Source of the DNA: a virus
Taxonomy: Duplodnaviria > Caudoviricetes
Virus record (IMG/VR): IMGVR_UViG_2663763243_000005
Coordinates: 14,632 to 78,631 of that record
DNA length: 64,000 nucleotides
Reading direction: 5' to 3' (one strand)
Shown: positions 2,054 to 32,712 of the stretch, in pieces
How positions within the stretch are numbered: position 1 is the first letter of the stretch
How the letters are laid out: the number at the start of each line of letters is the position of its first letter
Translations under genes and position numbers: made by a program
The notes under the pieces: generated by a model
Seen by the model: only the letters and a program-made list of their open reading frames with translations
Told to the model about the DNA's origin: nothing
The model's database searches: none

Positions 2054-3245
2054 AAACCACCTCGATATTCTCAGTACTGAACACCCCGAGCTGATTAAAG
2101 GCTATTCTCACTGCACTCTCATTGGCCTGCTCGACAGCAGTGCCAACGGTAATCGCATTCACAAAGCCATTACCGGCCACCAAATAATTGACTGGGGTAA
2201 ATAAACGGCCCGCGCCAATACTTTCACCAATTTTAAAGCCCAACTTAGAAAAGCCATTGGTCTGATCAAAACCGGTAATGCTGTAATCGACAATCGCCTG
2301 TTTAATCTCTTCGTCAATGAATTCGCTATTACTGGCGATCTCTACCCGTACATAAACCGGTATTAGTTGGGGGCGAAAAAAGGTTACGGTGATCGGGTTA
2401 CCTTTTGGGGTAACAGTATCCAACGAGATTTTATTGGGGAAAGTGTTATAACGGTTTAACCCACAACCGGGGTTTTTATTGATGGCAATGCTGTTAATAA
2501 CATCCTCGATGCTGCCACCATCAACAAATATCGCCATTGAGTGACCGAGCACCCCATTTTCGTCGGCTTGATCCTCAAAATTTTCATAAATACGCGCCCG
2601 TTTAACATCATCAATATTGACCAGCACCGCATAAATATTATCAATCTGATTGGAGCCAGGTAACGCTACTGATTCATTGCGCCGGATGCGAAATGCGTTA
2701 TTAGTTTCTTTATCCAATCCCATTGACGCTGCAGTGTTATTTGTCACCGCCGTAATGCCGCCGATCGGTGTGGCAATAATGGTAAGATTATGACTATTGG
2801 CCTCCTGCGCACCTGCCAGCGTACAAGTGACATTCACCGTCGCATTCCCTACCGCGTCAGTTACAACATCACCATCGGTCGCCCATAAGGTATTAGTCGC
2901 CCTATTTCTGATTAATGTCCCGGCATTAATTGGAGTAAAAGCGATACCGTGAAAATTAACGGTGGCGGTTGAATAGGTCGCACTTTTGCGTTTGATTCCA
3001 GCGAACGCAGCAATGCGGTCTAATTGTTGGTCAATCGCTGAGTTGGGATCAGCGGCGTGATAAGCATTAATTACCGCTTCATCCAGATTGGCTAATGCCT
3101 CACACCAGACCGCTATTGCCAGACCATCTGGTGATTCAGGATTAATATTCCAGCCGTCATCAATAGCAAGATAGCGCTGGCGCATAGTATCCAGATATTC
3201 ACTCAGCGTGGTGCCGCTGGCCCCGTCACGATTTATGGTTGCCAT
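2046..3245 (-). CDS. Baseplate J/gp47-like protein
   Basis: QLDRIAAFAGIKRK and ETNNAFRIRR motifs; 399 aa; synteny. Confidence 0.9.
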   Translation of the reverse strand: MATINRDGASGTTLSEYLDTMRQRYLAIDDGWNINPESPDGLAIAVWCEALANLDEAVINAYHAADPNSAIDQQLDRIAAFAGIKRKSATYSTATVNFHGIAFTPINAGTLIRNRATNTLWATDGDVVTDAVGNATVNVTCTLAGAQEANSHNLTIIATPIGGITAVTNNTAASMGLDKETNNAFRIRRNESVALPGSNQIDNIYAVLVNIDDVKRARIYENFEDQADENGVLGHSMAIFVDGGSIEDVINSIAINKNPGCGLNRYNTFPNKISLDTVTPKGNPITVTFFRPQLIPVYVRVEIASNSEFIDEEIKQAIVDYSITGFDQTNGFSKLGFKIGESIGAGRLFTPVNYLVAGNGFVNAITVGTAVEQANESAVRIAFNQLGVFSTENIEVVYV

Positions 3246-3595
3246 TAGATAAGATCCTCAGTGAACAGGAAATCAAATGCGTCGTTATTAATATCAATCA
3301 CCGCGGCAAATATCGTTATTTTGCGATTTTTCATATCGAGATCCATTTCAAAGCGGTTAATAGTCAGCACGCCTTTGGCCGCCAATAAGCGCTGTTTAAT
3401 ATTGGCTTCGGCAATGTCGCGTGAAGTTTTGCCCAATATGCTTTGAAACCACGGCGTTCCCTCGGTGGCATCAAGAAAATACTCGCCAAGAAATAACCGC
3501 AGGCAGCAGATCATGGCTTGCCGGGTTTCTTCTTTGCCGCTAGCAAACTGGCTACCGTGGGTAACAATGTCACCATCTTGGAAATTGCGGATCAC
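3245..3595 (-). CDS. Baseplate wedge / sheath initiator (gp25-like)
   Basis: GTG start after GGAGG; LRLFLGEYFLD..GTPW motif. Confidence 0.75.
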   Translation of the reverse strand: MIRNFQDGDIVTHGSQFASGKEETRQAMICCLRLFLGEYFLDATEGTPWFQSILGKTSRDIAEANIKQRLLAAKGVLTINRFEMDLDMKNRKITIFAAVIDINNDAFDFLFTEDLI

Positions 3596-3667
3596 AGTGC
3601 CTCCGGAAACAAAAAGCCCCGGCATAAGCCAGGGCGATAATAGGTAGGATTCAATCAGGGTAATGAG

Positions 3668-4348
3668 CTATTGCGGCCCATCAGTGCGATCATTGCCGCG
3701 TTGCACGCCGCCGTGGTCGTGGTCGCCAACTTCCAGCTCGCCAATCGCCAAGCCACCTTGAGTGACCTCAGTACGGCCATTAAGGGTGGTTTGCCCATTA
3801 TTGGTAAACTCTGGGCCGCTATAGCTCATGCCAGATTCGGTAAGCGCCAATGTGGTACCGCCAGCCGTCAAAGTCATTCCACTATCAGTAAGGTGAATGC
3901 GCACCCCGCCACTTTTGTTACTTAAACCAATCCCCTCGGTCGGCAAGCCCGCAATCGCGGTTTGTTGTGAGCGGTAACCAGGGGCAAAGAAAGCATCGGA
4001 CGGATTAAACATCCGTGCATCCAGTGGTGCTACCGGCCCGCCCTGACTGAGCCAATTATCGATAGAACGCTGGCTGAAATGAATATAGCCCTCGGTACCC
4101 GCTGGCAGCTCATGAAAAACCGTCCATTCGGCACTGCCAGAAAATTGCACCGGCACATGTTCGATAACGGGCAGTGTCTTAAATTGACCGTCACCGATAT
4201 GACGCTGAATGCCACACTCCACCACTGCGCGTTGTAGATCGGCGTTATAGCTAATGACCTTGCCGGGCATGCCGATCATCAAGTCACGCACCGTATCGCG
4301 CTTGAGCAGCATCATGGTGGTATACAGCGGGTTGCTCTCAATCATCAT
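3668..4348 (-). CDS. Baseplate central spike (Gp138-like)
   Basis: OB-type N-terminus, beta-repeat region, C-terminal HDHGGVQRG metal-binding apex. Confidence 0.85.
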   Translation of the reverse strand: MMIESNPLYTTMMLLKRDTVRDLMIGMPGKVISYNADLQRAVVECGIQRHIGDGQFKTLPVIEHVPVQFSGSAEWTVFHELPAGTEGYIHFSQRSIDNWLSQGGPVAPLDARMFNPSDAFFAPGYRSQQTAIAGLPTEGIGLSNKSGGVRIHLTDSGMTLTAGGTTLALTESGMSYSGPEFTNNGQTTLNGRTEVTQGGLAIGELEVGDHDHGGVQRGNDRTDGPQ

Positions 4349-4352
4349 TACC

Positions 4353-5246
4353 TCAGGGCATGCGCCATTGACTGATCAGCGTAGTTTTCCACGTGTCACC
4401 CCATAGAGTGCCTTCGTGGTATGTACGCAACACATTAAACTGGCCGGTCTGCTGCTGAATATTCGCCAGATTATTAAGGTCGGTGTTATACATGCCGCTG
4501 AAATTGATCGTCCAAAAGCTCGACGTAACATTAATTACATCAGCCGGCTGAATTTGATGATTCATTTTAACGTCAATTTCCATTGTGCTTAGATACCAGC
4601 GAGGCACCCCCTCCATGCCGTTCTGAGCGGTTATATCGTGGGTTACCCCTTTTCTTGCTGCTCCTTCTCTACCCAATAAAACGCGTGTTGGCGTTAGCAT
4701 CCAGTAATATTTCCAGTCCTCCCGTAAGGCATTCAAAATATCGCGGCACAGTCGACCACCTGCATTATAGGAAAAGGCAAAACGGGGAAGGTCTGAGAAA
4801 TCACCAATCACTTCAACATCAAGACCAAATTCACCTGCGACATCTTTCAGCATTTTTATGGCGGGAGTATTGGCTCCCCATACTTTAAAACTGGCAGTAT
4901 TCCATGCCAGCCCAATCGTGCGGCAATATAACCGCAGGCAGGTATTTACCCCCTCTTTGACCACTTCGACATTGTGAATCCGTCCGCTGAATATCGTGCC
5001 GATGTTGTCGCCATAACCAGCTTTTAATACCAGGTTGCCATAACGTTTTTCTTTATCGTCATAGCGCTGAATCAAGGCGCGGGTGCGCGCTGAAATACCG
5101 TAAAGAGTGATTCTGGCAGTAGCATCGACATTCTGCGGGGTATTATCGACGGCAAAGCGGATCTCTAATGGCGGCTGATAGGTAAGTTCATCGCCACTCA
5201 CTGGGGTAATAGTCAGTAAGTAATTGCGGCCAAAATAACTACTCAT
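4353..5246 (-). CDS. Baseplate hub protein
   Basis: LKAGYGDNIGTIFSGRI motif; lies before the spike. Confidence 0.75.
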   Translation of the reverse strand: MSSYFGRNYLLTITPVSGDELTYQPPLEIRFAVDNTPQNVDATARITLYGISARTRALIQRYDDKEKRYGNLVLKAGYGDNIGTIFSGRIHNVEVVKEGVNTCLRLYCRTIGLAWNTASFKVWGANTPAIKMLKDVAGEFGLDVEVIGDFSDLPRFAFSYNAGGRLCRDILNALREDWKYYWMLTPTRVLLGREGAARKGVTHDITAQNGMEGVPRWYLSTMEIDVKMNHQIQPADVINVTSSFWTINFSGMYNTDLNNLANIQQQTGQFNVLRTYHEGTLWGDTWKTTLISQWRMP

Positions 5247-7959: not shown

Positions 7960-8403
7960 CTAGATCTCTTGCGAAAATTTCCTTGCATACTCTGCAAGTA
8001 TTCTCATCCTATCGTAATTTTTTGCCTTATCATGCGCAGGCGGCGTAAAGACAGCAATTAGCGAGTAACTATTTTCATCAATTAACCCTTTGGCATATAC
8101 CAAGGCTGTGTCTGATGTTCTGTACCACTGTAAGACTTGCTGGTCATTAAGATTGGCTGATTTTGGTGGAGCCTTGAATTTATCATCGCCCAACTCCAAG
8201 TGAATATGCCCAAGGCCTGAGTCTTGAATATCATCAGGCCTATCATAAACAGTATCACGGCCAAAATAGTCTGGTAACTTACCAGTAGATTTGTAAATTA
8301 TGAAATCATCTAAAAGAGATTGTTTCAGTGATGGAAAATCCACAAACACCGATGAAAGATAATACTCAAAGCTGTGAGGGTTATAATCAGCGGTTATGTG
8401 CAA
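7960..8403 (-). CDS. yafO: YafO-family type II toxin (mRNA interferase)
   Basis: FGRD..Y..P...L.HIHL...QW.RTSD..LVY..G...Y.LIAVF.P.AH motif series of YafO. Confidence 0.8.
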   Translation of the reverse strand: MHITADYNPHSFEYYLSSVFVDFPSLKQSLLDDFIIYKSTGKLPDYFGRDTVYDRPDDIQDSGLGHIHLELGDDKFKAPPKSANLNDQQVLQWYRTSDTALVYAKGLIDENSYSLIAVFTPPAHDKAKNYDRMRILAEYARKFSQEI

Positions 8404-18602: not shown

Positions 18603-20246
18603 TTAAACCCACTTGTCATAACTGATGCTGCCACCAGCAATTAATTCGATCTCTATCGAATCCATAATTGTATCGAGGATGTCGTCGTTTTTATGGCTAT
18701 CATCTGCTGAGAAATCAGCGCATTCCGTCAGTGCAGGCAGCACCCAATCCGTCGAGGCAGCCACCGCGCCATCCCAGTAATACACCTGCGGGATTTTTTG
18801 ACCGTCGTCAGTCATCAGTGCCGGAAGATAGACACAACCGGTTTTCATCTGCGGAATGGTATTCAGGCAACGGATCAGCTTATTTTGGCCTGAGCCGCGC
18901 GGGATGGTCAGAATGGGAATACTTTTACGTTTTACCAGCGTGGTAATCAGACCTTGCCCGGCTTGCTTATCCTCAATCCCCATATGGCGTAATGGCGCGG
19001 GGCGTTTCGGATTATACGGCCGCCATTTCTCCCATAAGTCTTGCGCGGTGGTCAGTAAGTCCTCCGGATCCCAGCGGCCACGCACACTGTCAATAATGTA
19101 GAGATTGCCATCAACCCCCATCCCCACCAGGGTAAAGACGGTGTAATCGTTGTAATCTTCAATTTTGCCGGAGTTGGTATCGACATAAACGGCGCGGTGA
19201 GTCAGCGGGGGTAAGTGGGTGTAGCGTTTAAACCAGTCGGTATCAATTAACCCGCCAGTCAATGCCCGTGGGCGCTGCATATATTGCGACATGAAAGTGT
19301 ATTCGTCGCTTTCCCACAACCGCAGCAAATCACCGACATATTCGTTTACCGGCCAGTAAGACCAATAACGCACCCCGCCGACCACCACACTTTCACTATT
19401 TTTTACCGAGAACCAACATTGTGAGCGCCACGGCTCCGGCAACGCATCAATGTATTCTTCACTGACCAGCGCCGGAATGGTGATGTGGTGAAAATCCACT
19501 CCCATCTTGCCGGACAGCATAAATCCGGTAGCGTCATCGGTATGAAGTCGCTGCTGGATAGAAACAAACGGGGTTGGATGCTCTTTGCTCTTATCACCGC
19601 GCCGTGAGCGGATGGTGTTCACTAAGATACGGTTCGCACTGGCCCGTTTGGTGGCCGAAAACATATCTTCGGGTTTGTTGTAATCATCCAGCCCAACAAA
19701 ACCGGAAAAATCAGGTCCGGGAAAACCTGCACGACCACCAGTTAATTGCCCACCGCTGGAGCGGGAAACCGTCTGCCCCACCATCCGGCCACGGCTATTA
19801 ACAATTTCCCACTCTTCTGCCTGATTAATACCAAAACGGCAAGGCCACAGTGATTGATACTCAGGGCTGGCGATAATATCGCGGGTGCGGCGGCTATTGC
19901 GTTTTACCAGTGTGTCAGCAAACGACACATTGAGATTACGAAAGCGTCGTAACTGGCCGGTCTGCACCAACATATTGATATAGGCTGGCAAATGAACCGA
20001 AATAAACTCGGTTTTAGTCCCACCAGGCGGTACATTCACAATCAGGTTGCGCGGTTGCAGCCGGTTATTGACCAAATCATCCAGCTTTGCGGCCATCATT
20101 TTATGATGCCAGTTCACCAATAGTCGGTCACTCTGCAACAGCTCAAACCAAATACGAGTGAAATTAAGAAAAGACTTTTCCGATCGGGATTTCAGGGCGA
20201 CACGCGACGGGAAATCCAGATTTTCCCATTCGAGAATATCGCTCAT
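18603..20246 (-). CDS. terL: Terminase large subunit
   Basis: Walker A variant NVPPGGTKT, LDDYNKP, QQRLHTDD, nuclease IEDK and NDDILD motifs. Confidence 0.95.
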   Translation of the reverse strand: MSDILEWENLDFPSRVALKSRSEKSFLNFTRIWFELLQSDRLLVNWHHKMMAAKLDDLVNNRLQPRNLIVNVPPGGTKTEFISVHLPAYINMLVQTGQLRRFRNLNVSFADTLVKRNSRRTRDIIASPEYQSLWPCRFGINQAEEWEIVNSRGRMVGQTVSRSSGGQLTGGRAGFPGPDFSGFVGLDDYNKPEDMFSATKRASANRILVNTIRSRRGDKSKEHPTPFVSIQQRLHTDDATGFMLSGKMGVDFHHITIPALVSEEYIDALPEPWRSQCWFSVKNSESVVVGGVRYWSYWPVNEYVGDLLRLWESDEYTFMSQYMQRPRALTGGLIDTDWFKRYTHLPPLTHRAVYVDTNSGKIEDYNDYTVFTLVGMGVDGNLYIIDSVRGRWDPEDLLTTAQDLWEKWRPYNPKRPAPLRHMGIEDKQAGQGLITTLVKRKSIPILTIPRGSGQNKLIRCLNTIPQMKTGCVYLPALMTDDGQKIPQVYYWDGAVAASTDWVLPALTECADFSADDSHKNDDILDTIMDSIEIELIAGGSISYDKWV

Positions 20247-20970: not shown

Positions 20971-21978
20971 TCAATCCAACCCCGGCAATTTACCCTCTAG
21001 CATCTGCTGTGCTTTCGCATAATCTTCTGGCGTGTAACTCACCTGGCTAATGGCACCACCATCAGGGCCGCTGATTTCGGTCTTATTTTTCAGCATACCC
21101 AAATGCTGCCCAACCATTTTTAGCGCGTCGTCCTGATTACGGGTAATGACTTCTAAGCCAAACTTACCTTGCTTAACACCGGCATAAAGGCGGCGTGCCG
21201 AAATCGATAAATCCCGCGAATCGTGGAAATGCGCCCTGCCTTGCCCCTCACCATTGCAACGTGGGCAATCTGGATTAGGATCGAGCGTACTGTCAAAACC
21301 GTAACCGCCATCATCCAGTGGCGCAGGTTTACCGTTATTGGTTCTTTTCTCTGACTCTTCCTGATATTCCTGCTCGTTAATCCACTGGTATTTATTATCA
21401 ATCCCCCAGCAGTGACGACAACATAAACGGCGAAACTCTGAAATTTCGTTGGCATTAGCCGTGGCGATATCCCACCACCAATTTAAAACGGCATCCTGCG
21501 TGATATGCGTCCGTTTTTCTCTGGCTTCCATAGCATCGCGGATGGCTTTGTTTACCGATACATGGCGATACAACCGACGGGCAGCGGCAGCACCGGTTAA
21601 TCCCTCGCATTTATATCCGGCCCGTTTATATGCCGCCGTCTTATCTAAATCAATTAAATACTCACTAACAAATTTCGCCTGCATATCGTTAAGCCCGTAT
21701 CTACTGGCGATAGAGCTGCTTTCTTCAATTTGATTTTCAATTTCAGGCAATTCTATATTTTCAATTTTCGAAATTGATTTTTTATCTTTGGTTCGCAGGT
21801 TCGCACCGGAATTATGCGAACCTGTTTTGCGAACCTTTTCGGGCTTAGGCCATTCATCAGCTTTAGCCCTCTTCCGTACTGCGGTATCACTTACACCGTG
21901 CTTTTCAGCTAACGCACGAATTGAAAGTGGCCCAGCACAGTATTCGTGCTCTATCGCCTCCCAATCCGGCTTTTTCAT
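20971..21978 (-). CDS. terS: Terminase small subunit with Cys-rich insertion
   Basis: KPDWEAIE..Y HTH; FVSEYLIDL..TAAYKRAGY; CRHC...CPRC; HLGML...EISGPDGG. Confidence 0.9.
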   Translation of the reverse strand: MKKPDWEAIEHEYCAGPLSIRALAEKHGVSDTAVRKRAKADEWPKPEKVRKTGSHNSGANLRTKDKKSISKIENIELPEIENQIEESSSIASRYGLNDMQAKFVSEYLIDLDKTAAYKRAGYKCEGLTGAAAARRLYRHVSVNKAIRDAMEAREKRTHITQDAVLNWWWDIATANANEISEFRRLCCRHCWGIDNKYQWINEQEYQEESEKRTNNGKPAPLDDGGYGFDSTLDPNPDCPRCNGEGQGRAHFHDSRDLSISARRLYAGVKQGKFGLEVITRNQDDALKMVGQHLGMLKNKTEISGPDGGAISQVSYTPEDYAKAQQMLEGKLPGLD

Positions 21979-22057: not shown

Positions 22058-22492
22058 ATGTCAGGTTATTCAAACTTATGGCACAGCATAGAGAATCACG
22101 TCAATGAAGTCCGTAGCATCAAAAACGTTGGCTACATAGATGTAAATGACAGCCTAAAAGTCGCTAATAGGACAATGCAGATATTTATACTGGATGTTTT
22201 CTTACATGAACATAGTAAGAAATACGGTTCGGGTGTATTCCCTTTAAAAGGTAAGAATGCCCTGCACCACAAAATCCTGATGAAATACAAATGGCCGCTG
22301 TCCGTTATACGGGAGATGAGCCTAAATGATTCCCTTTTTGTTCTTCAGGACGAGCTGACTATTGCGAACCTACCTGAAGATGCTCAGAAGTATTTGTCGC
22401 ATCAGGAAGGGACGGTTCAGATTGCTTTTGATGATCTACTGGATGATGAGTGGAATCCAGCTTTTGGCGAACTATTCCTGCAAAGGCAATAG
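22058..22492 (+). CDS. Phage-associated hypothetical protein (possibly ECs1072-like), moron
   Basis: GGGAGG RBS; opposite strand; LKGKNALHH...SLNDSLF motif recalled from ECs1072-type proteins. Confidence 0.65.
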   Translation: MSGYSNLWHSIENHVNEVRSIKNVGYIDVNDSLKVANRTMQIFILDVFLHEHSKKYGSGVFPLKGKNALHHKILMKYKWPLSVIREMSLNDSLFVLQDELTIANLPEDAQKYLSHQEGTVQIAFDDLLDDEWNPAFGELFLQRQ

Positions 22493-22658
22493 TACTGACT
22501 TCTTGGTACTCATTGCTTAATTCAGCAAGCTTTTCATTCAAATGTATTTGCTGATTTTCATTTGAAATAAGATGGCCGAGAGCTAATAGTTGCTCGGCCA
22601 GCCAATTGCTTAACTCATGATTATTCAAATTTCCGGAATAAATATAGGGTTTGTTCAT
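22359..22658 (-). CDS. Hypothetical protein, 3' end possibly replaced by the opposing moron
   Basis: AAGGA RBS and operon orientation, but last 134 nt overlap the + strand gene. Confidence 0.35.
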   Translation of the reverse strand: MNKPYIYSGNLNNHELSNWLAEQLLALGHLISNENQQIHLNEKLAELSNEYQEVSTIAFAGIVRQKLDSTHHPVDHQKQSEPSLPDATNTSEHLQVGSQ

Positions 22659-22693: not shown

Positions 22694-22957
22694 CTATTGT
22701 TGAGGTTTTAAATGTTCCAGCAAGAAAATCATGGCTCGCGTGTCGCCTTTCTTGGCTTTGATAAAGAGAGAATTGGATATATCCGCTATCCCTTTGGCTT
22801 TTCCCCGGCGAACAGCCAGCCGGTAAAGCGAGATTGCTGATTTATCTTTCCTTAAATTATCAATGTCGATTTCCAGTGTGTCGGCTATCTGCTGTTCCGT
22901 TAATCCACGCCCTGCAAATGCTTCGACTTTATCGAGCGTCGGCTTATCCATCGTCAT
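22694..22957 (-). CDS. Small HTH protein (TerS-like HTH)
   Basis: GLTEQQIADTLEI HTH; AKKGDTRAMIFLL; ATGA-coupled to the mom-like gene. Confidence 0.75.
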   Translation of the reverse strand: MTMDKPTLDKVEAFAGRGLTEQQIADTLEIDIDNLRKDKSAISLYRLAVRRGKAKGIADISNSLFIKAKKGDTRAMIFLLEHLKPQQ

Positions 22958-23568
22958 GCCCTCTTTGGATAGGGTTTATGACGTGATATCAGGATTTTTT
23001 TCATTTTCTTGTCGAGGGGCATCAGGTATTTATGCTTTCCTGATGTTTTGAACTCTTGGGCGTTGGGATCTAAATGCTGTCGAATTGATTCAAGGTTTTG
23101 CTTTACCCCTTTGGCAGAAACACTGCGCGGGTGGGTTTTCTTACCTTTGATGATGAATGCGCCCACAGTTCCTGTACCAAACAGCCCCTCATATATCCAA
23201 TTGGTAGCCTGATAAATTCCGCCATGATGATTTTGGTCTTTATCTGCATAGGAGACGATTAGCCGCAGACCGGGGCAAACATCAGCGAGAAATTTAATCG
23301 CTTTTGCCAATATCTGACTAACTGGCGATATGTGTTGGCGTAGTGCCACACGGGTAAGTTCGCACACTTGATCCTGCTGCAAACTGTAAGGTTGCCCGAT
23401 ATGGTTATTGGCACCGCGGCTAAAAATAACGACACCAATAAATTTCCCATCTTCCCATGCACCCACTTTTACCAATTTTCCGACCGGCACCGCCTTTGCA
23501 TAATGCCAGTTAAGGCAGGCAAAGCTGGCAGCCTGATGAGTCGCCCAATCCACCGTGAGTGTTGTCAT
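22954..23568 (-). CDS. mom: Mom-family adenine modification enzyme (GNAT fold)
   Basis: WHY, ELTRVAL, IVSYAD..Q.H.G.IYQATNWIY.G and KHKY motifs of the Mu Mom family. Confidence 0.8.
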   Translation of the reverse strand: MTTLTVDWATHQAASFACLNWHYAKAVPVGKLVKVGAWEDGKFIGVVIFSRGANNHIGQPYSLQQDQVCELTRVALRQHISPVSQILAKAIKFLADVCPGLRLIVSYADKDQNHHGGIYQATNWIYEGLFGTGTVGAFIIKGKKTHPRSVSAKGVKQNLESIRQHLDPNAQEFKTSGKHKYLMPLDKKMKKILISRHKPYPKRA

Positions 23569-24137
23569 AAAACACCCCCACAGTGTGGGCAGAGTTTGGC
23601 GTCCAGGTGATCGAGCTTTCCCTGATCATCTTCGTTACCAGGCAGAAAATCGACATTCAACATTTGATCGATTTCATCAGACGAAAATCCGGTTAGACCA
23701 AGGTCAAAATTTTCTGCCAATAAATCACTTAACTCTAAAGTTAAGAGATCCTGATCCCACCCGGCATTCAGCGGCAATTTATTGTCAGCAAGACGATAGG
23801 CTTTTTTCTCAGACTCCGTTAACCCAGATAATGTGATGGTAGGAACTTGTTCAATACCCAACTGTTCCGCTGCCAATAAACGACCATGACCCGCAATTAC
23901 CTCACCCCGTTCATCAATAAGGATCGGGTTTGTCCAACCGAACTGTTTAATACTCGCTGCAACTTCATCTACTTGCTCCGCTGAGTGTGTTCTCGCATTT
24001 TTTGCGTAAACAATCAACGAATTGAGTAATTTATAGGCTATCTCTAATTTATTCTGATTTTTTACTATGGTCATTTTGCATGTTCCAACTATTATGACCC
24101 TGCTCTCGAGAGCAAGTGGGCCTTGGTTCGTACTCAT
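23565..24137 (-). CDS. ParB/Srx N-terminal domain protein with C-terminal CPHCG knuckle
   Basis: NARTHS..QV...SIKQFGWTNPILID...IAGHGRL.AA...YRLADNKL. Confidence 0.9.
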   Translation of the reverse strand: MSTNQGPLALESRVIIVGTCKMTIVKNQNKLEIAYKLLNSLIVYAKNARTHSAEQVDEVAASIKQFGWTNPILIDERGEVIAGHGRLLAAEQLGIEQVPTITLSGLTESEKKAYRLADNKLPLNAGWDQDLLTLELSDLLAENFDLGLTGFSSDEIDQMLNVDFLPGNEDDQGKLDHLDAKLCPHCGGVL

Positions 24138-25772: not shown

Positions 25773-25901
25773 TTAACCTGAGTAAATACTGATGTGAATG
25801 AAACTGAACAGCCACAGAATGAATTCAATCACTCCCCAGCCAACAACGGCGCAGATGCAGCCAAGAATAATAAAAATCCCTGTACCCGGTAAGTTATACA
25901 T
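25773..25901 (-). CDS. 42-aa membrane peptide after the o-spanin
   Basis: TAATG overlap with the Rz1 stop; MYNLPGTGIFIILGCICAVVGWGVIEFILWLFSFIHISIYSG. Confidence 0.6.
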   Translation of the reverse strand: MYNLPGTGIFIILGCICAVVGWGVIEFILWLFSFIHISIYSG

Positions 25902-26164
25902 TACGTTTTTCTCCCAGAATTCTGCCGCCAACTAATGACCTCATCCAGCCGCCCCTTACAAATCCGCAGCTCATGCTTCAATGCCAGCGCATACAGCCCG
26001 CTATCGCCCCAAGTCGTACCGACGAACTCCGGTACCTCGCATTCAGTTAATACTGATTCTGGCGGTAACAATACAGGACAGGTTGCTGGTGGACGTGGTA
26101 GCGACTTACTCGCGCAAGATGTTAATGCTAGCGTCAGGCATGCGCTGAATAGCACACTTATCAT
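25901..26164 (-). CDS. rz1: o-spanin lipoprotein (Rz1-like)
   Basis: Lipobox LALTSC, Pro-rich, overlaps the i-spanin 3' end. Confidence 0.8.
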   Translation of the reverse strand: MISVLFSACLTLALTSCASKSLPRPPATCPVLLPPESVLTECEVPEFVGTTWGDSGLYALALKHELRICKGRLDEVISWRQNSGRKT

Positions 26165-26438
26165 CTGACGACGCCGCCAGAAACCGCTTAAGCCGGTCTT
26201 CACTTTCATTGCGTAGTTTCCTTTCTTTATCTAACTGGCGGGCGGTGGCTGCTCGGTTGGCGGCTTCATTCACCTGGTATGCATCGATGATGTTGCCCAG
26301 TGCTGTGTTTGTGGCTTGCTCATCACTCAGCGCTTTTTCCGCTTTTTGGATATCATTTGAGAGGCGATAACTGTTAAAGAACAGAGCCGACACAACCACC
26401 ACCAGCACAGCAATAAGTATTCCAATGGCCTTATTCAT
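26106..26438 (-). CDS. rz: i-spanin (Rz/DUF2570-like)
   Basis: N-terminal TM, coiled coil, DKCA..MP C-terminus; follows the endolysin. Confidence 0.85.
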   Translation of the reverse strand: MNKAIGILIAVLVVVVSALFFNSYRLSNDIQKAEKALSDEQATNTALGNIIDAYQVNEAANRAATARQLDKERKLRNESEDRLKRFLAASSDDKCAIQRMPDASINILRE

Positions 26439-26964
26439 CCAGCCCCCAACAGGTCAGCTCACTTTCCTGTGCACGGCGTTCAATCTGCCCGTAACAGTTA
26501 TTTGAGCGGATATTGCAATCCTTACCACCATCTCGAACCCAGCGTTTGATTTCAGCGCATGCACCTCTACGGTCGCCAGCATTGAGTTTTCGATAGAACG
26601 TGGAGGTGAGACATTTACTCGGGCCGATGTTATAGGGACAAAACGAAGCGATACCGGCAATCTGTGGTTCAGTCAGCGGTACCCGGACATTTATCTTTAC
26701 CCAATTGATAGCCTTGTCAGCCTCCAGCTTATTTACCGCAGCGCATTTCTCCGCTGACAGCTTCATCCCTTTCACTACCGGTTTGCCATCAACTTGAGTC
26801 GCACCACGGCAAACAGTCCAAATCCCCTTTCCATCTGGATAAGCTACCAGCCTGTTACCCTCTTTCTCATCCAAAAGCTGATCAAGAATTATTGTGGCCG
26901 GTGCTGCAACCATAATCAGAGCCAGGACAGTCGCGCTCAATTTGCTTTTTGTCGAGGCCATCAC
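26431..26964 (-). CDS. SAR endolysin (GH24 lysozyme)
   Basis: Weakly hydrophobic N-terminal SAR segment, then EG...AY.D..G.WTVC.G.T catalytic motif. Confidence 0.9.
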   Translation of the reverse strand: MMASTKSKLSATVLALIMVAAPATIILDQLLDEKEGNRLVAYPDGKGIWTVCRGATQVDGKPVVKGMKLSAEKCAAVNKLEADKAINWVKINVRVPLTEPQIAGIASFCPYNIGPSKCLTSTFYRKLNAGDRRGACAEIKRWVRDGGKDCNIRSNNCYGQIERRAQESELTCWGLDE

Positions 26965-27176
26965 TCACCATCCGGTTTATAGCCGTGGCGTCTGTCCCAA
27001 ATTTTCACGCCAGCATTAAGCAAAAATGTCAGGGCCATAAAAAACAAAGAGCCAAGTACGCCGATAACTGTCCACTCATCAGGTGTGAATCCAGCAATCA
27101 GCTCTTTAACCCAAAAAATGAAACTACCACCCGACACGGTATAGGAGACCGCTGTTGTTATATTGCTCATTTTCAT
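26961..27176 (-). CDS. Class II holin (pinholin-like) with M-K-M dual start
   Basis: 71 aa from ATG 27176 (GGAGGGGG RBS); two TMs; basic C-terminus. Confidence 0.85.
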   Translation of the reverse strand: MKMSNITTAVSYTVSGGSFIFWVKELIAGFTPDEWTVIGVLGSLFFMALTFLLNAGVKIWDRRHGYKPDGE

Positions 27177-27282
27177 AGTCTCCCCCTCCCTGATGGGTTG
27201 GGTTGGGTGTGAAGCGGAAAGAAAATACGCCACAATCACATGATAATTATGTGTATTGCAGATTATCTGGGCGCAAAAACGG

Positions 27283-28822: not shown

Positions 28823-29230
28823 TTAGTCTTGACCTATATTTCTATCAAGAATACACAATACCCCACCAATAAACCCTATTGCCGTTTGCATCTCTTTCCT
28901 GATTGTCCCATCTGAGCACTTACGCCTTTTCGCTATCATTCGCAGTGAAACACCGTATACATAGTGCAAAATCACCAGCTCATACTCTTCTGGTTTATAC
29001 TTTTTCAATCGCGCCACACAGCCATCAATCATAATGCCGTCATCATCACAGCACTGTGGCCGTGATTTGTTGGTATATGGGAGTAGCCCCTTAAAGCCTG
29101 CGGCAATAGGTTGCCAATCTACCTGGCTATTATCATTAGCGGCCCATGCTCCCCAAAGCTCCAATAGATATTGAATATCCAGCATTGTTTTTTCCTGCTC
29201 TGACGGCAGGCTTTGCGGTGCGGCTCTCAT
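28823..29230 (-). CDS. Q: Late antiterminator Q
   Basis: DIQYLLELWGAWA...IAAGFKGLLP...CCDDDG...SDGTIRKEMQTA.GFI. Confidence 0.9.
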   Translation of the reverse strand: MRAAPQSLPSEQEKTMLDIQYLLELWGAWAANDNSQVDWQPIAAGFKGLLPYTNKSRPQCCDDDGIMIDGCVARLKKYKPEEYELVILHYVYGVSLRMIAKRRKCSDGTIRKEMQTAIGFIGGVLCILDRNIGQD

Positions 29231-30516: not shown

Positions 30517-32712
30517 TTATGCCGCCATCCTCCAGATACACAGCTCTGGCATATTGGCCCTTACCAGTGCCTCGGCAAAGGGTGGCGGCACCGCATTGCC
30601 ACATCTTGCTACCTGTTCAGATTTGGGCCAGAGGGTGCCATCAATATCCCGATCAATAATGTAATCTGGCGGGAACCCGCTGGCGTTGTAGAGTTCACGG
30701 GCAATCAACATGCGCATACAAATATCAACGATGATGTATTCGCCTACCGATAGATATTGTGGTCGTGGTGCGGGGAATAAATGCCAGTCGTCTGGTAAAT
30801 CGCTGAAATGATCCACCAGCCGAGCACAGTTCCAGGCGTTATAGCGCTGCTCGTCGCTCAGAGGTTCAACATCAAAATTGTTTTCCACCAAGCCAAAACG
30901 CTCTTTAGTCGTCACCGCGTGTATTGGTTCCGAGAGATCTACTGAGCCACCGGTACCGTAATACTTGGTCAGAAAGGCGTTTATTATCCCGACATGATTA
31001 CCGCCGGCGGTTAAGGTCGGTACCGGTTCAGTGATCGGTTTACCATCGCGGCATGTGCCGCGCAATTGCACCAGGTGAGATGTACAAAGCGCGTGGTGAT
31101 CAACCGTGGTGATGGTGTGCAATGGCTGGTTAATATTGATGCCTGCACCGGTATAATTGCCACCGTAATGCTTTACCAAATGGGCAGCGACCATACCCAT
31201 GGCATGACCATTACCACCAGGGCGAACCGATGTACCGGCGGTGACTGTGGATAATGGCTCATCACATTGTTGGCCTATAGCGCCGGTTCTAAATTTGGTT
31301 ATATGCGGTGCCAGTATTGCACTGGCTAACTGGCTTTTACCTCCCCCACCCGCCGTAACGGTACCCAACGGTGTATTGATATCATTTGCCGTACTGTTAC
31401 CGAACTGACGCACAACAACAGGCGCAGCGACAGCAAAACCATGTGTTCTGGTAATGGTCTGCAACGGATCACGTAATGATTGCCCACGGAAGCAATCATA
31501 TTTGGTTTTGGTGCTGGTGTGGTTGCACTTCACCGCATACGGCTCCAGCAATAAATGCTCGGCCTTGCTGGTGATGGTGGTTAGCGGTTGGTCTATTGGA
31601 TACTGCAGACGATCGCCACCGAAACCGGTTTGGCCCAACCGCACAATAAACGGATCAGGGTTATCTATAACAAAGCGTTGCAGCCCTTTGACGATGCGCC
31701 GCAAGGTATTATCAGCCAAATCTTTCTTGCGACCGAAAATAGAGCGTGTTGGCTGGCTCCAGTCGATACATTCGGCCGCCGTTCGCCAAGGTTGCAGCAT
31801 GCCAGAAAGCACATCCGTAGAGTTTGGTGCGCCGTGGCTAGGTTCCGGCCAGACAACCGATTCACCGTCACAACGCCCGACCACAAACAGCCGTTTTCTG
31901 ATGGTCGGTGTGCCGTAATCACAGGCTTTCAGTTCTCGATGGTCCACGTTATACCCCAGCCCTGAAACCAACCTTGCCGCTTCAGGGCCATTGATATCTA
32001 TCTTCAAAAACTCACACACTTCGGTCAGCGCTGGATGATTGCCATCAATACCGGTACCCAGCATGTCAATAAATGCCTTGAACGTTTCCCCTTTACGGGC
32101 TGGATCGGGTCGGTGATTACCCTGGCTATCCGTCAATAATGGCCCCCAGCCGCGAAACTCTTCGACGTTCTCCAACATCAGAAAGCGTGGGCGGACTGCC
32201 AGCGCCCAGCGCAATACCACCCAGGCTAAACCACGAATTTCTTTCTTAACCGGCGTGCCGCCCTTGGCTTTGGAGAAGTGGCGGCAATCAGGACTGAACC
32301 AACCCAGCAATACCGGCAAACCGCCCGTTGATATGAGCGGGTCAACACTGAAAATATCCTCAGGGTAATGCAACGTACGTGGGTGATTGATGGCATGCAT
32401 CGCCATCGCCACTGGGTTATGGTTCATGGCAATATGTGGCTCATAGCCCAATGCTTGCTTAATCCCCTCGCAGCTCCCACCGCCACCAGCGAACCCCACA
32501 ACCACCAAACCATCCTGCAAATCAGGCCGCGCTACCGTGATTTCTTTACGTCGCGCCCATGCATGAGCCGCCTGTTGGATATGCTGCGGATTATCTCGAT
32601 TTAAAAACATCTGGTTCATTTGGAGCAAAAGCTGTTGCTGGTGGTCGGGACTCAAAGCATGTACCGGTATAACCGATGAGGCACATTGATTTACTTCCGT
32701 AGGCCAGATCAT
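30517..32712 (-). CDS. C5 DNA cytosine methyltransferase
   Basis: Motifs FAGGGG, SPDC, ENV, R.RLF, GNAV; central region of repeated P..T.T units. Confidence 0.92.
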   Translation of the reverse strand: MIWPTEVNQCASSVIPVHALSPDHQQQLLLQMNQMFLNRDNPQHIQQAAHAWARRKEITVARPDLQDGLVVVGFAGGGGSCEGIKQALGYEPHIAMNHNPVAMAMHAINHPRTLHYPEDIFSVDPLISTGGLPVLLGWFSPDCRHFSKAKGGTPVKKEIRGLAWVVLRWALAVRPRFLMLENVEEFRGWGPLLTDSQGNHRPDPARKGETFKAFIDMLGTGIDGNHPALTEVCEFLKIDINGPEAARLVSGLGYNVDHRELKACDYGTPTIRKRLFVVGRCDGESVVWPEPSHGAPNSTDVLSGMLQPWRTAAECIDWSQPTRSIFGRKKDLADNTLRRIVKGLQRFVIDNPDPFIVRLGQTGFGGDRLQYPIDQPLTTITSKAEHLLLEPYAVKCNHTSTKTKYDCFRGQSLRDPLQTITRTHGFAVAAPVVVRQFGNSTANDINTPLGTVTAGGGGKSQLASAILAPHITKFRTGAIGQQCDEPLSTVTAGTSVRPGGNGHAMGMVAAHLVKHYGGNYTGAGININQPLHTITTVDHHALCTSHLVQLRGTCRDGKPITEPVPTLTAGGNHVGIINAFLTKYYGTGGSVDLSEPIHAVTTKERFGLVENNFDVEPLSDEQRYNAWNCARLVDHFSDLPDDWHLFPAPRPQYLSVGEYIIVDICMRMLIARELYNASGFPPDYIIDRDIDGTLWPKSEQVARCGNAVPPPFAEALVRANMPELCIWRMAA

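Follow-up and report, generated by a model that had tools for sequence, protein, structure and literature searches.

A ParB-N gene and a Mom-family gene form a widespread module, here in the late region of a lambdoid provirus

The pairing of a ParB-N gene with the gene for a Mom-family enzyme is a widespread module whose linkage goes far beyond chance. We describe it from a provirus of which the window, as we call the whole stretch of DNA that was analysed, covers 64,000 nucleotides. An earlier note on this DNA had stated that ParB-N domains often accompany DNA-modifying enzymes near terminases, and for this locus the link is supported. Within its Mom clade, which is very widespread, the gene immediately upstream of Mom encodes ParB in 78 of 80 viral contigs, in 66 of 80 genomes of species from bacteria, CPR and archaea, and in 4/4 cultured phages, counts that do not represent independent events because the synteny of close prophages is inherited. 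All 120 rows with a linked ParB group within one 133-row clade of a quick tree (SH-aLRT 99), and two of the three long homologues found are ParB-Mom fusions, both of which keep the ParB tail. No ParB was found within 2-2.5 kb of Mom in seven distant Mom phages (0/7), and Mu has none. An orphan ParB beside a DNA-modifying enzyme is the mark of phage modification cassettes, and it is what the ParB-Mom locus presents.

What might a ParB-like protein do for Mom? On balance, although without great confidence, we favour a late-expressed module for modification of the phage's own DNA, in which ParB-N would be a dedicated accessory partner of Mom and the third gene, encoding a small HTH protein, would belong to packaging. 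Expressed late, the module would act on phage DNA after replication. By analogy with Mu Mom, the enzyme would most likely take glycine from the host's Gly-tRNA(Gly) and attach it to adenine N6 in the phage's duplex DNA; the product would rearrange to N6-carbamoylmethyl-adenine, and the modified adenine would shield the DNA from restriction. As an accessory subunit, ParB-N would most likely bind nucleotide and load or activate Mom on duplex DNA, a role suggested by the ParB-like activators of thymine dioxygenases and by the fusion of the same ParB module to N6/N4 methylases. Family membership, gene order kept in relatives, the fusions and the place in the late operon are observed; from these we infer the chemistry in this phage, a physical contact between ParB-N and Mom, and the action of ParB-N. 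Counterpoints to the proposal are the sufficiency of Mu Mom alone in vitro, D111 in place of Mu R151, N47/H84 in ParB-N, and a window that lacks a tRNA-Gly-like element.

Gene order and the late operon

The three genes of the module (Table 1) are joined, as the note had stated, by 4-nt stop/start overlaps of sequence ATGA, read on the plus strand as tcat at 23565-23568 (ParB-N/Mom) and 22954-22957 (Mom/HTH). Such overlaps are nothing unusual for a phage operon; it is the gene order kept in relatives, not the start overlaps, that goes beyond chance. The operon had been placed just upstream of the terminase. Upstream it is, but it does not abut the terminase, as a two-ORF insert precedes TerS. 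The insert (families phrog_3501 and phrog_5286/NCBIfam ECs1072 family, E 2e-50) occurs in some close relatives only, the gap between the HTH gene and TerS being 13 nt in others, and it lies outside the module. The packaging-linked position is found in most relatives: in 65 of 79 relative loci the module precedes genes for packaging or the head.

Table 1. Features of the window discussed in the text
Feature	Coordinates	Strand	Family match or position
ParB-N protein, 190 aa, stand-alone	23565..24137	-	PF02195, phrog_620
Mom-family GNAT-fold enzyme, 204 aa, predicted N6-adenine DNA modifier	22954..23568	-	PF25680, phrog_1384
HTH protein, 87 aa, probably a shortened TerS-like family member	22694..22957	-	phrog_309
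Insert, two convergent overlapping ORFs (99 aa minus, 144 aa plus)	22058..22658		between HTH gene and TerS
TerS (terminase small subunit)	20971..21978	-	PF03592 E 4e-22; phrog_51 E 5e-55
TerL (terminase large subunit)	18603..20246	-	phrog_38 E 8e-96
Antiterminator Q	28823..29230	-	PF06530 E 6e-48
Holin, lysozyme, Rz1-like genes	27239..25901		between Q and module
C5 cytosine DNA methylase domain in 731-aa protein	30517..32712	-	PF00145 E 2e-14

The phage is, as supposed, not transposable, its gene set (int, Exc, cI-like, Q, holin/lysozyme/Rz) being that of an integrase-type lambdoid provirus. The note's remark that no com gene was visible also stands: the Com zinc ribbon (PF10122) has no match at E<=1 in the phage's own 78.6-kb provirus record, where a local tblastn with two Com proteins gave a best E of 0.77. 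The separate C5 methylase that it had named, as part of a two-layer shield, is present, 6.4 kb from the three genes, and together with Mom it plausibly gives two DNA-modifying activities in one phage. Q lies upstream of the lysis genes and the module on one common strand, an arrangement implying that the module is transcribed late. Timing of the modification by ParB-N or the HTH protein, or its targeting by either, had been suggested. For ParB-N this is conjecture, and late timing has a simpler explanation in the location of the module after Q and the lysis genes; the HTH protein probably has no part in the modification.

The HTH protein has no Pfam match. Its match to phrog_309, a family annotated 'terminase small subunit', has E 2e-20 and covers only the middle third of the profile (positions 144-247 of 319). 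Downstream of Mom, 21/47 distant viral loci have homologues of 109-155 aa, and in loci L067-L069 and in Salinibacter phage B2_17 the homologue is followed directly by TerL; in the window, a separate Terminase_2 TerS comes after the HTH gene. Aligned with its homologues, the window protein is without their N-terminal GGGRP arm and C-terminal tail. In Salmonella phage SPF_0923 the same small HTH gene is placed after a glycosyltransferase and before TerS. The protein is probably a shortened TerS-like packaging protein rather than a modification factor, and would head the packaging block. In annotation, such a small HTH gene should not count toward the ParB-Mom pair.

Nature and possible role of the ParB-N protein

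ParB-N scores 28 bits against PF02195 (cut-off 26.3) and matches phrog_620 at E 3e-62 and phrog_498, the N-terminal module of ParB-methylase fusions, at E 2e-50. Its profile finds the N-domains of Spo0J, Noc and ParB in the PDB (E 1e-10), and the best Foldseek folds for its model (pLDDT 82) are Noc, ParB and KorB. A ParB/Srx CTPase-fold is followed by a helical middle and a conserved C-terminal tail, F.PG.EDDQGKLD....CP.CG. Among 25 homologues N47, G83, N119, C183, P184 and C186 are invariant, and the conservation of R49, H84 and R86 is 90% or more. The phosphate-binding R/R/N of Spo0J and Noc has counterparts in R49, R86 and N119, and boxes I, II and III, which contain R49, G83/R86 and N119, correspond to QPR, GERR and EN of those proteins, again with at least 90% conservation in the 25 homologues. 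The residues predicted to bind nucleotide phosphate are thus in place. N47/H84 stand where ParBs that hydrolyse CTP have their catalytic Q/E, and a canonical HTH domain was not found (29 bits for TIGR00180, cut-off 58.45). With these features and a length of 190 aa, the protein does not fit a canonical partition ParB.

The protein shares 55-69% identity with the N-terminal parts of ParB_N-N6_N4_Mtase fusions, which are abundant and match it over residues ~25-165 only, the conserved tail being confined to the Mom-linked form. Some ParBs (e.g. those of loci L009 and L010) are mosaic, 75-80% identical in the N-domain and 86-99% in the tail and Mom, a pattern compatible with coupling of tail and Mom and equally with plain linkage. 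A Com-like role of the tail, or a zinc site shared with Mom, was considered and rejected: the tail holds a single CP.C, and C18 of Mom is replaced by V in several ParB-linked homologues. Relatives of ParB-N are found beside other enzymes, in Yersinia phage vB_YpM_39 beside a ParB-Methyltransf_23 fusion, and in phage SPF_0923 beside a TAGT glycosyltransferase in the order ParB-X-HTH-TerS.

Could ParB-N instead serve packaging or partition, for instance by binding the pac site or as a nuclease helping the terminase, and be functionally unrelated to Mom, with which it would only share the start of the late packaging block? The usual position of the module ahead of packaging or head genes would be accounted for, Mom-less ParB-N proteins hold the same place in other phages, and a pattern of 'ParB-terminase loci' has been described (PMC4738411). 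However, phages Appa and Shade have the pair in a neighbourhood of replication or early genes away from the terminase, ParB is absent beside the seven distant Mom genes although those phages package DNA too, and neither the ParB-Mom fusions nor the restriction of the tail to the Mom-linked form would be expected of a packaging protein. We regard this explanation as unlikely.

Equally unlikely in our estimate is that ParB-N controls the expression of mom rather than catalysis, as a stand-in for Mu Com/C or as a DndB-like repressor of a toxic enzyme. Within one Mom clade Com can take the upstream place of ParB, as in the ParB-less locus L150, where a gene for a Com-like zinc ribbon overlaps the mom start; DndB is a ParB-like regulator, as cited in PMC12704722; and a small hairpin at the 3' end of the ParB gene, at 23577-23589, covers the likely mom Shine-Dalgarno sequence. 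Yet the hairpin has 5 bp, and terminator-like matches number 8 against 6.0 +/- 2.8 in shuffles, counts not above those of shuffles, and we rejected it as a translational switch. In-frame fusion to the enzyme it controls is unlikely for a regulator, this ParB module also occurs fused to methylases, and ParB-N is without the canonical HTH domain.

An accessory partner of Mom is the reading to which we return. That ParB is not universally needed follows from Moms within the ParB-linked clade that have none, namely a Pseudonocardiaceae clade of seven plus loci L152 and L155, L150 being one of these Moms. The further step, that this large cross-phylum clade of Mom enzymes depends on ParB, with ParB-N (a nucleotide-binding fold with an invariant tail) as the required loader or activator along duplex DNA, is put forward tentatively, as something short of probable. 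If true, orphan ParB plus base-modifying enzyme would be a general two-component design that takes in methylases, dioxygenases, glycosyltransferases and Mom, and in those relatives with a tRNA-Gly look-alike in mom it would be a self-contained machine of three parts: loader, enzyme and private glycine carrier.

The Mom-family enzyme and the tRNA-Gly-like element

The Mom-like enzyme of the earlier note is a true Mom-family member. It matches PF25680 over the full length of the profile (positions 2-202 of 202; E 5e-45, 154 bits against a cut-off of 27.1) and phrog_1384 at E 5e-63. A match to Mu Mom had been set as the check, and the nearest solved structure to its model (pLDDT 89) is indeed that of Mu Mom, 8bv8, with TM 0.69-0.72, E 2e-10 and 207-209 aligned columns, in a match that extends over the Mom-specific insert; other GNATs reach TM values of about 0.45, those next in rank about 0.41-0.52. 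Six of the seven residues important in Mu Mom are kept, H22, Y23, R73, S84, D109 and Y119 aligning with Mu H58, Y59, R111, S124, D149 and Y159. The seventh, R151, which is essential in Mu, is D111 in the window enzyme, at a position that is variable across the family, and Mu W48 and W181 are not kept.

Many relatives carry a tRNA-Gly-like element that abuts or overlaps the 3' end of mom, with G1-C72, C2-G71 and G3-C70 pairs, an NCC anticodon and mostly U73. It is present in 35/80 genome loci and 26/47 distant viral loci, and its helices covary: 94.2% of cells are paired, against 67.7% in shuffles, and 18/19 pairs have changes on both sides. The NCC anticodon and the G1/C2/G3 acceptor are shared by all 11 seed elements and nearly all of the 52 aligned. 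In Appa and Shade the element is the sole tRNA-model match in the whole genome. The tRNA model alone scores that of Shade at 37.5 bits; our custom model, R1, scores those of phage loci L086 and L087 highly, and an Rfam scan of these two loci at E<=1 gave no match. In the window, neither ARAGORN nor R1 found a tRNA or tRNA-Gly-like element. By analogy with Mu, the elements of the relatives fit the known Gly-tRNA co-substrate of Mom.

That the window's Mom clade makes a different mark or uses a different substrate from Mu Mom, for instance another aminoacyl group or base, is the least probable of the alternatives, for although identity to Mu Mom is only 22% with R151 not kept, the only tRNA of phiEf11, near its module, is a tRNA-Asn, and ARAGORN assigns the Methanobacterium element to Val, the near-constant glycine-type anticodon and acceptor, the six catalytic or active-site residues and the fold match over the Mom-specific insert all speak against it.

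Comparison with known systems

Recent work showed that hypermodification by Mu Mom takes a single enzyme, which borrows a charged tRNA: the glycine of Gly-tRNA(Gly) is placed on N6 of adenine and rearranges to N6-carbamoylmethyl-adenine, and 'a single viral enzyme' works alone in vitro (Silva et al. 2026, PMC13219725). The window enzyme shares with it a Pfam family over the full length, a GNAT fold with an extra insert and, presumably, late expression and an anti-restriction role. It differs in its low identity and altered residues, in the absence of Mu's ~36-aa N-terminal extension, and in its setting, since the module is not at the end of a transposable phage and has no com, whereas in Mu the gene for the Com zinc ribbon overlaps the mom start. 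Unlike Mu Mom, which acts alone, the window's clade nearly always has a ParB-N gene upstream. At stake is whether Mom-based anti-restriction in ordinary temperate phages differs from that of Mu, and the ParB-Mom pair is a good annotation marker of phage DNA modification.

The combination of ParB, Mom and tRNA-Gly was already described in 2011, in Dehalococcoides ssrA genomic islands, where a ParBc protein is followed by a Mom homologue, as in the window, with a tRNA-Gly-like locus in mom (McMurdie et al. 2011, PMC3146451). Those modules are in integrative islands with serine recombinases, not in a tailed-phage late operon, and their tRNA-like locus lies in the first 150 bp of mom, whereas the window has none. 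This was the only report of ParB beside Mom found in the phage DNA-modification literature, where Iyer et al. 2013 and the supplement of Silva et al. 2026 may mention the pair; the momylation literature found does not mention ParB, and searches for 'Mom-like' with 'ParB-like' or 'tRNA-Gly' found nothing. The position of the window genes is reminiscent of the 'ParB-terminase large subunit' loci (Iyer, Zhang, Burroughs, Aravind, NAR 2013, as cited in PMC4738411), in which ParB and a variable DNA-modifying enzyme lie next to the terminase and modification is predicted to proceed in step with packaging.

Closest in the ParB itself are the ParB_N-N6_N4 methylase fusions (e.g. Psychrobacter phage pOW20-A; Kaljevic et al. 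2025, PMC12704722), in which the identity noted above covers the N-terminal ~140 residues. The target of their enzyme is an exocyclic base amine in duplex DNA, as is predicted for the window Mom. They are fused and SAM-dependent and lack the C-terminal tail, whereas the window Mom is separate and translationally coupled.

Closest in the suggested mode of action is 5mYOX176, which requires ParB176 on dsDNA, although ParB mutants in the NTP site still worked in that system (O'Toole et al. 2026, PMC13229309). There a ParB-like protein switches on a phage DNA-modifying enzyme unrelated to Mom, a Fe/2OG dioxygenase rather than a GNAT acyltransferase, and ParB dependence is reported where ours is conjectural; the window ParB, in turn, has a short conserved CP.C tail and no recognised dimerisation domain. 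What is at stake is whether ParB activation reaches a second, chemically unrelated class of enzymes. Both systems place an orphan ParB-like gene beside a post-replicative phage DNA-modifying enzyme (in the window, a predicted one), and in both a single enzyme family is divided into ParB-linked and ParB-free subclasses.

The ParB-Mom pair and its distribution

The ParB-Mom pair is a real, well-conserved module. Among 80 IMG/VR loci with a Mom relative (57-100% identity), tblastn places ParB directly upstream of Mom in 78; of the two exceptions, L064 is ParB-positive by profile and L059 has a 5'-truncated Mom. In 80 species genomes, spanning bacteria, CPR, Methanobacterium and one Woesearchaeota MAG, ParB is upstream of Mom, within 800 nt and on the same strand, in 66, with ParB farther upstream in two more loci and a flank too short for a verdict in two. 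ParB is directly upstream in each of the clade's four cultured phages, phiEf11, Shade, Appa and B2_17; none of seven phages with distant Mom-like genes (no more than 35% identical) has ParB within 2-2.5 kb. In a quick-search ML tree with a midpoint root, built on 139 distinct rows after removal of duplicates and of sequences with <150 aligned residues, all 120 ParB-linked Moms fall within one 133-row clade (SH-aLRT 99). Two of the three homologues longer than 357 aa are ParB-Mom fusions.

The ParB-less Moms inside this clade comprise a Pseudonocardiaceae clade of seven and three further loci, L150, L152 and L155. L150, from a Rhodobacteraceae MAG, has a Mom of the ParB-linked clade and no ParB, and a Com-like zinc ribbon, the only Com among 160 loci, overlaps its mom start. 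This mom is followed by a host acyl-CoA dehydrogenase gene, as at the end of a Mu-like prophage. The ParB-less Pseudonocardiaceae prophages have an ABC-ATPase-GNAT fusion (phrog_11143; Pfam ABC_tran and Acetyltransf_7) after Mom, a pair for which DNA acylation has been predicted in print (PMC7824862).

Setting in the prophage and link to packaging

By gene-content annotation the window phage is an integrase-type lambdoid provirus. The earlier note had described an operon of ParB_N, Mom and HTH genes in a non-transposable phage with a separate C5 methylase and no com gene, and this is correct: two ATGA overlaps couple the three ORFs, and the complete 78.6-kb provirus record contains one ParB_N match and no Com. 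Its placement of the operon just upstream of the terminase holds for gene order, which after Q runs holin/lysozyme/Rz, ParB_N-Mom-HTH, TerS, TerL, portal, head and tail, but a two-ORF insert parts the HTH gene from TerS. The insert, whose ORFs share 134 nt of overlap, is carried by only some close prophages.

Features of the window and of related loci (coordinates of the window or of the locus named)
Feature	Coordinates	Strand	Match or content
ORF 1, ParB_N protein, 190 aa	24137..23565	minus	PF02195, 28 bits vs cut-off 26.3; phrog_620 E 3e-62
ORF 2, Mom, 204 aa	23568..22954	minus	PF25680 E 5e-45, whole profile; phrog_1384 E 5e-63
ORF 3, HTH protein, 87 aa	22957..22694	minus	phrog_309 'terminase small subunit' E 2e-20
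Hairpin CCCAC/GUGGG	23577-23589	minus	5 bp
Two-ORF insert between HTH gene and TerS	22058-22658	convergent	99 aa, phrog_3501; 144 aa, ECs1072 family E 2e-50
ORF, 126 aa	20461-20841	plus	two CxxC pairs
YafO-type toxin-domain ORF	7960-8403	minus	PF13957 E 3e-23
Q	28823..29230
C5 methylase, 731 aa	30517..32712
Int, Exc, cI-like gene	35.8-41.9 kb
Second mobile-element-like stretch	43799-64000
L150, Com-like zinc ribbon	2691-2921		PF10122 E 7.5e-12
L150, Mom	2851-3612
L135, ABC-ATPase-GNAT fusion	3811-4959
L167, ABC-ATPase-GNAT fusion	3701-4939
L082, Yersinia phage vB_YpM_39	880-2876		ParB-N 207 aa, then ParB_N-Methyltransf_23 fusion 457 aa
L083, Salmonella phage SPF_0923	316-3317		ParB, TAGT, HTH87-like 69-aa gene, TerS (Terminase_2), TerL
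L141, tRNA-Gly-like element	3602-3675
L158, tRNA-Gly-like element	3562-3634
L081, tRNA-Gly-like element	1166-1239
L086, tRNA-Gly-like element	3098-3169
L108, Methanobacterium element	3606-3683
L001 (phiEf11), tRNA-Asn(GTT)	3105-3177

In close relatives the TerS-TerL gap can be as short as about 30 nt or as long as 1.5 kb, a variation that identifies the gap as an insertion hot spot. In the window this gap holds the 126-aa ORF, which is on the opposite strand and has no family match. The YafO-type ORF, within the tail-gene block, is probably a moron. Past the integrase comes a second mobile-element-like stretch that includes tail-fibre genes, a polyvalent protein of 2727 aa (LPD1, LPD5, LPD38, MuF_C) and a pair of NADAR and PRTase-CE genes; the 'provirus' record may thus consist of two elements.

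The 87-aa HTH protein (HTH87), which had no match in a Pfam/NCBIfam scan, has homologues downstream of Mom in 33/33 close viral loci and in 21 of 47 distant ones. The distant homologues are 109-155 aa long and all match phrog_309; in the alignment, HTH87 is without the N-terminal arm and C-terminal tail of longer homologues. TerL directly follows the homologue in three related loci (L067-L069) and in B2_17. We read HTH87 as a TerS-like packaging protein. In 79 non-redundant distant loci, the largest ORF of at least 250 aa to start no more than 2.6 kb downstream of Mom encodes TerL in 52 cases and a different head or packaging protein in 13; in the remaining 14 it has some other match or none. 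This count leaves out the close Yersinia/Serratia loci and 26 loci in which the flank was too short or contained no ORF of this kind. The ParB-Mom pair of Appa and Shade lies away from the terminase.

A tRNA-Gly-like element at the mom 3' end of relatives

Of the nine tRNAs that ARAGORN finds across the 80 genome loci, eight adjoin the 3' end of mom, and five of these eight are typed Gly. Appa has a tRNA-Gly(CCC), its only tRNA-model match, 33 nt past mom; in Shade an unannotated cloverleaf with UCC overlaps the mom stop, and B2_17 has an annotated tRNA-Gly. G1, C2 and a CC at positions 35-36 of the anticodon are common to eleven such elements. A covariance model made from these eleven detects the element at the 3' end of mom in 35/80 genome loci and 26/47 distant viral loci; it gives no match in the window, in close relatives of the window, or in phiEf11, Mu and the distant-Mom phages. 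On 52 aligned elements, in an alignment itself fitted to the model, 94.2% of cells pair, versus 67.7% when shuffled and 29-49% with partners slid, and both-side changes occur at 18 of 19 pairs, a strong covariation signal. In 49 of 51 cases the start of the element falls -8 to +9 nt from where the conserved part of Mom ends. The mom ORF reads through the element in 42 cases, and its stop lies within the element in six and ahead of it in three. An NCC anticodon, a G1-C2-G3 acceptor and mostly U73 are typical, and in many copies the D-arm is reduced or the loops are odd. In Methanobacterium the element at the mom end, which ARAGORN types as Val, carries A73 and an ACC-containing loop; the only tRNA of phiEf11 lies about 670 nt upstream of ParB. 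The tRNA-Gly-like elements at the mom 3' end support a predicted use of glycyl-tRNA by this Mom clade.

ParB and Mom compared with known systems

A 25-homologue alignment, a PDB profile search and a pLDDT 82 model, whose best fold matches are Noc, ParB and KorB, show that the window ParB has the ParB-CTPase fold. By alignment and profile, the predicted phosphate-binding residues R49, R86 and N119 are kept, and N47 and H84 occupy the positions of Q and E in hydrolysing ParBs. The fold is followed by a helical middle part and a low-confidence tail, in which Q172, G173, L175, C183, P184 and C186 are invariant across the 25 homologues. Over its first ~140 residues the protein shares 55-69% identity with the N-terminal parts of a very large number of ParB_N-N6_N4 methylase fusions, matches that do not extend to the tail. 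A further match is phrog_498 (E 2e-50), which represents the N-terminal module of such ParB-methylase proteins. ParB is mosaic in close prophages (L009, L010, L013-L023): its N-domain is 75-82% identical to that of the window, versus 86-97% for the C-terminal 65 residues and 94-99% for Mom, and this greater divergence suggests that the N-domain has been exchanged, perhaps with ParB-methylase genes as partners. The hairpin near the 3' end of the ParB gene falls in the codons for CPHCG and spans the G-rich stretch just 5' of the mom ATG; it may be chance.

Relatives of the window ParB adjoin modifiers other than Mom, a ParB_N-Methyltransf_23 fusion in Yersinia phage vB_YpM_39, where the ParB-N protein and the fusion are both annotated 'hypothetical', and another in Salmonella phage SPF_0923, where the enzyme is a TET-associated-type glycosyltransferase (TAGT; PF20691 E 3e-35). 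Judged by sequence, the SPF_0923 cassette is the window's cassette with Mom swapped for TAGT. The window locus is an ordinary representative of the cassettes in which an orphan ParB accompanies a DNA-modifying enzyme in front of the terminase. A phage thymine dioxygenase requires a ParB-like activator on dsDNA (PMC13229309); the available text of a survey of the ParB-CTPase fold makes no mention of Mom (PMC12704722).

The window Mom is an ordinary Mom-family member, 97-99% identical to Yersinia proteins already named Mom at NCBI and 90% to Serratia Mom proteins. The best structural match of its model (pLDDT 89) is Mu Mom 8bv8 (TM 0.69-0.72), versus about 0.45 for other GNATs. In alignment the two share H58, Y59, R111, S124, D149 and Y159 (Mu numbering), whereas R151, W48 and W181 of Mu Mom are not kept. 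We infer the chemistry of the window Mom, a ParB-Mom contact and the role of ParB. The combination of ParB, Mom and a tRNA-Gly-like element is not new: Dehalococcoides islands that carry a ParBc gene and a homologue of Mom have been described (PMC3146451), and there a tRNA-Gly-like locus is embedded in mom, unlike in the window, whose mom is without one. Mu Mom, which acts alone, uses Gly-tRNA(Gly) as the donor of the glycine that it attaches to N6-adenine in dsDNA (PMC13219725), and Mu has com where the window's clade has ParB.
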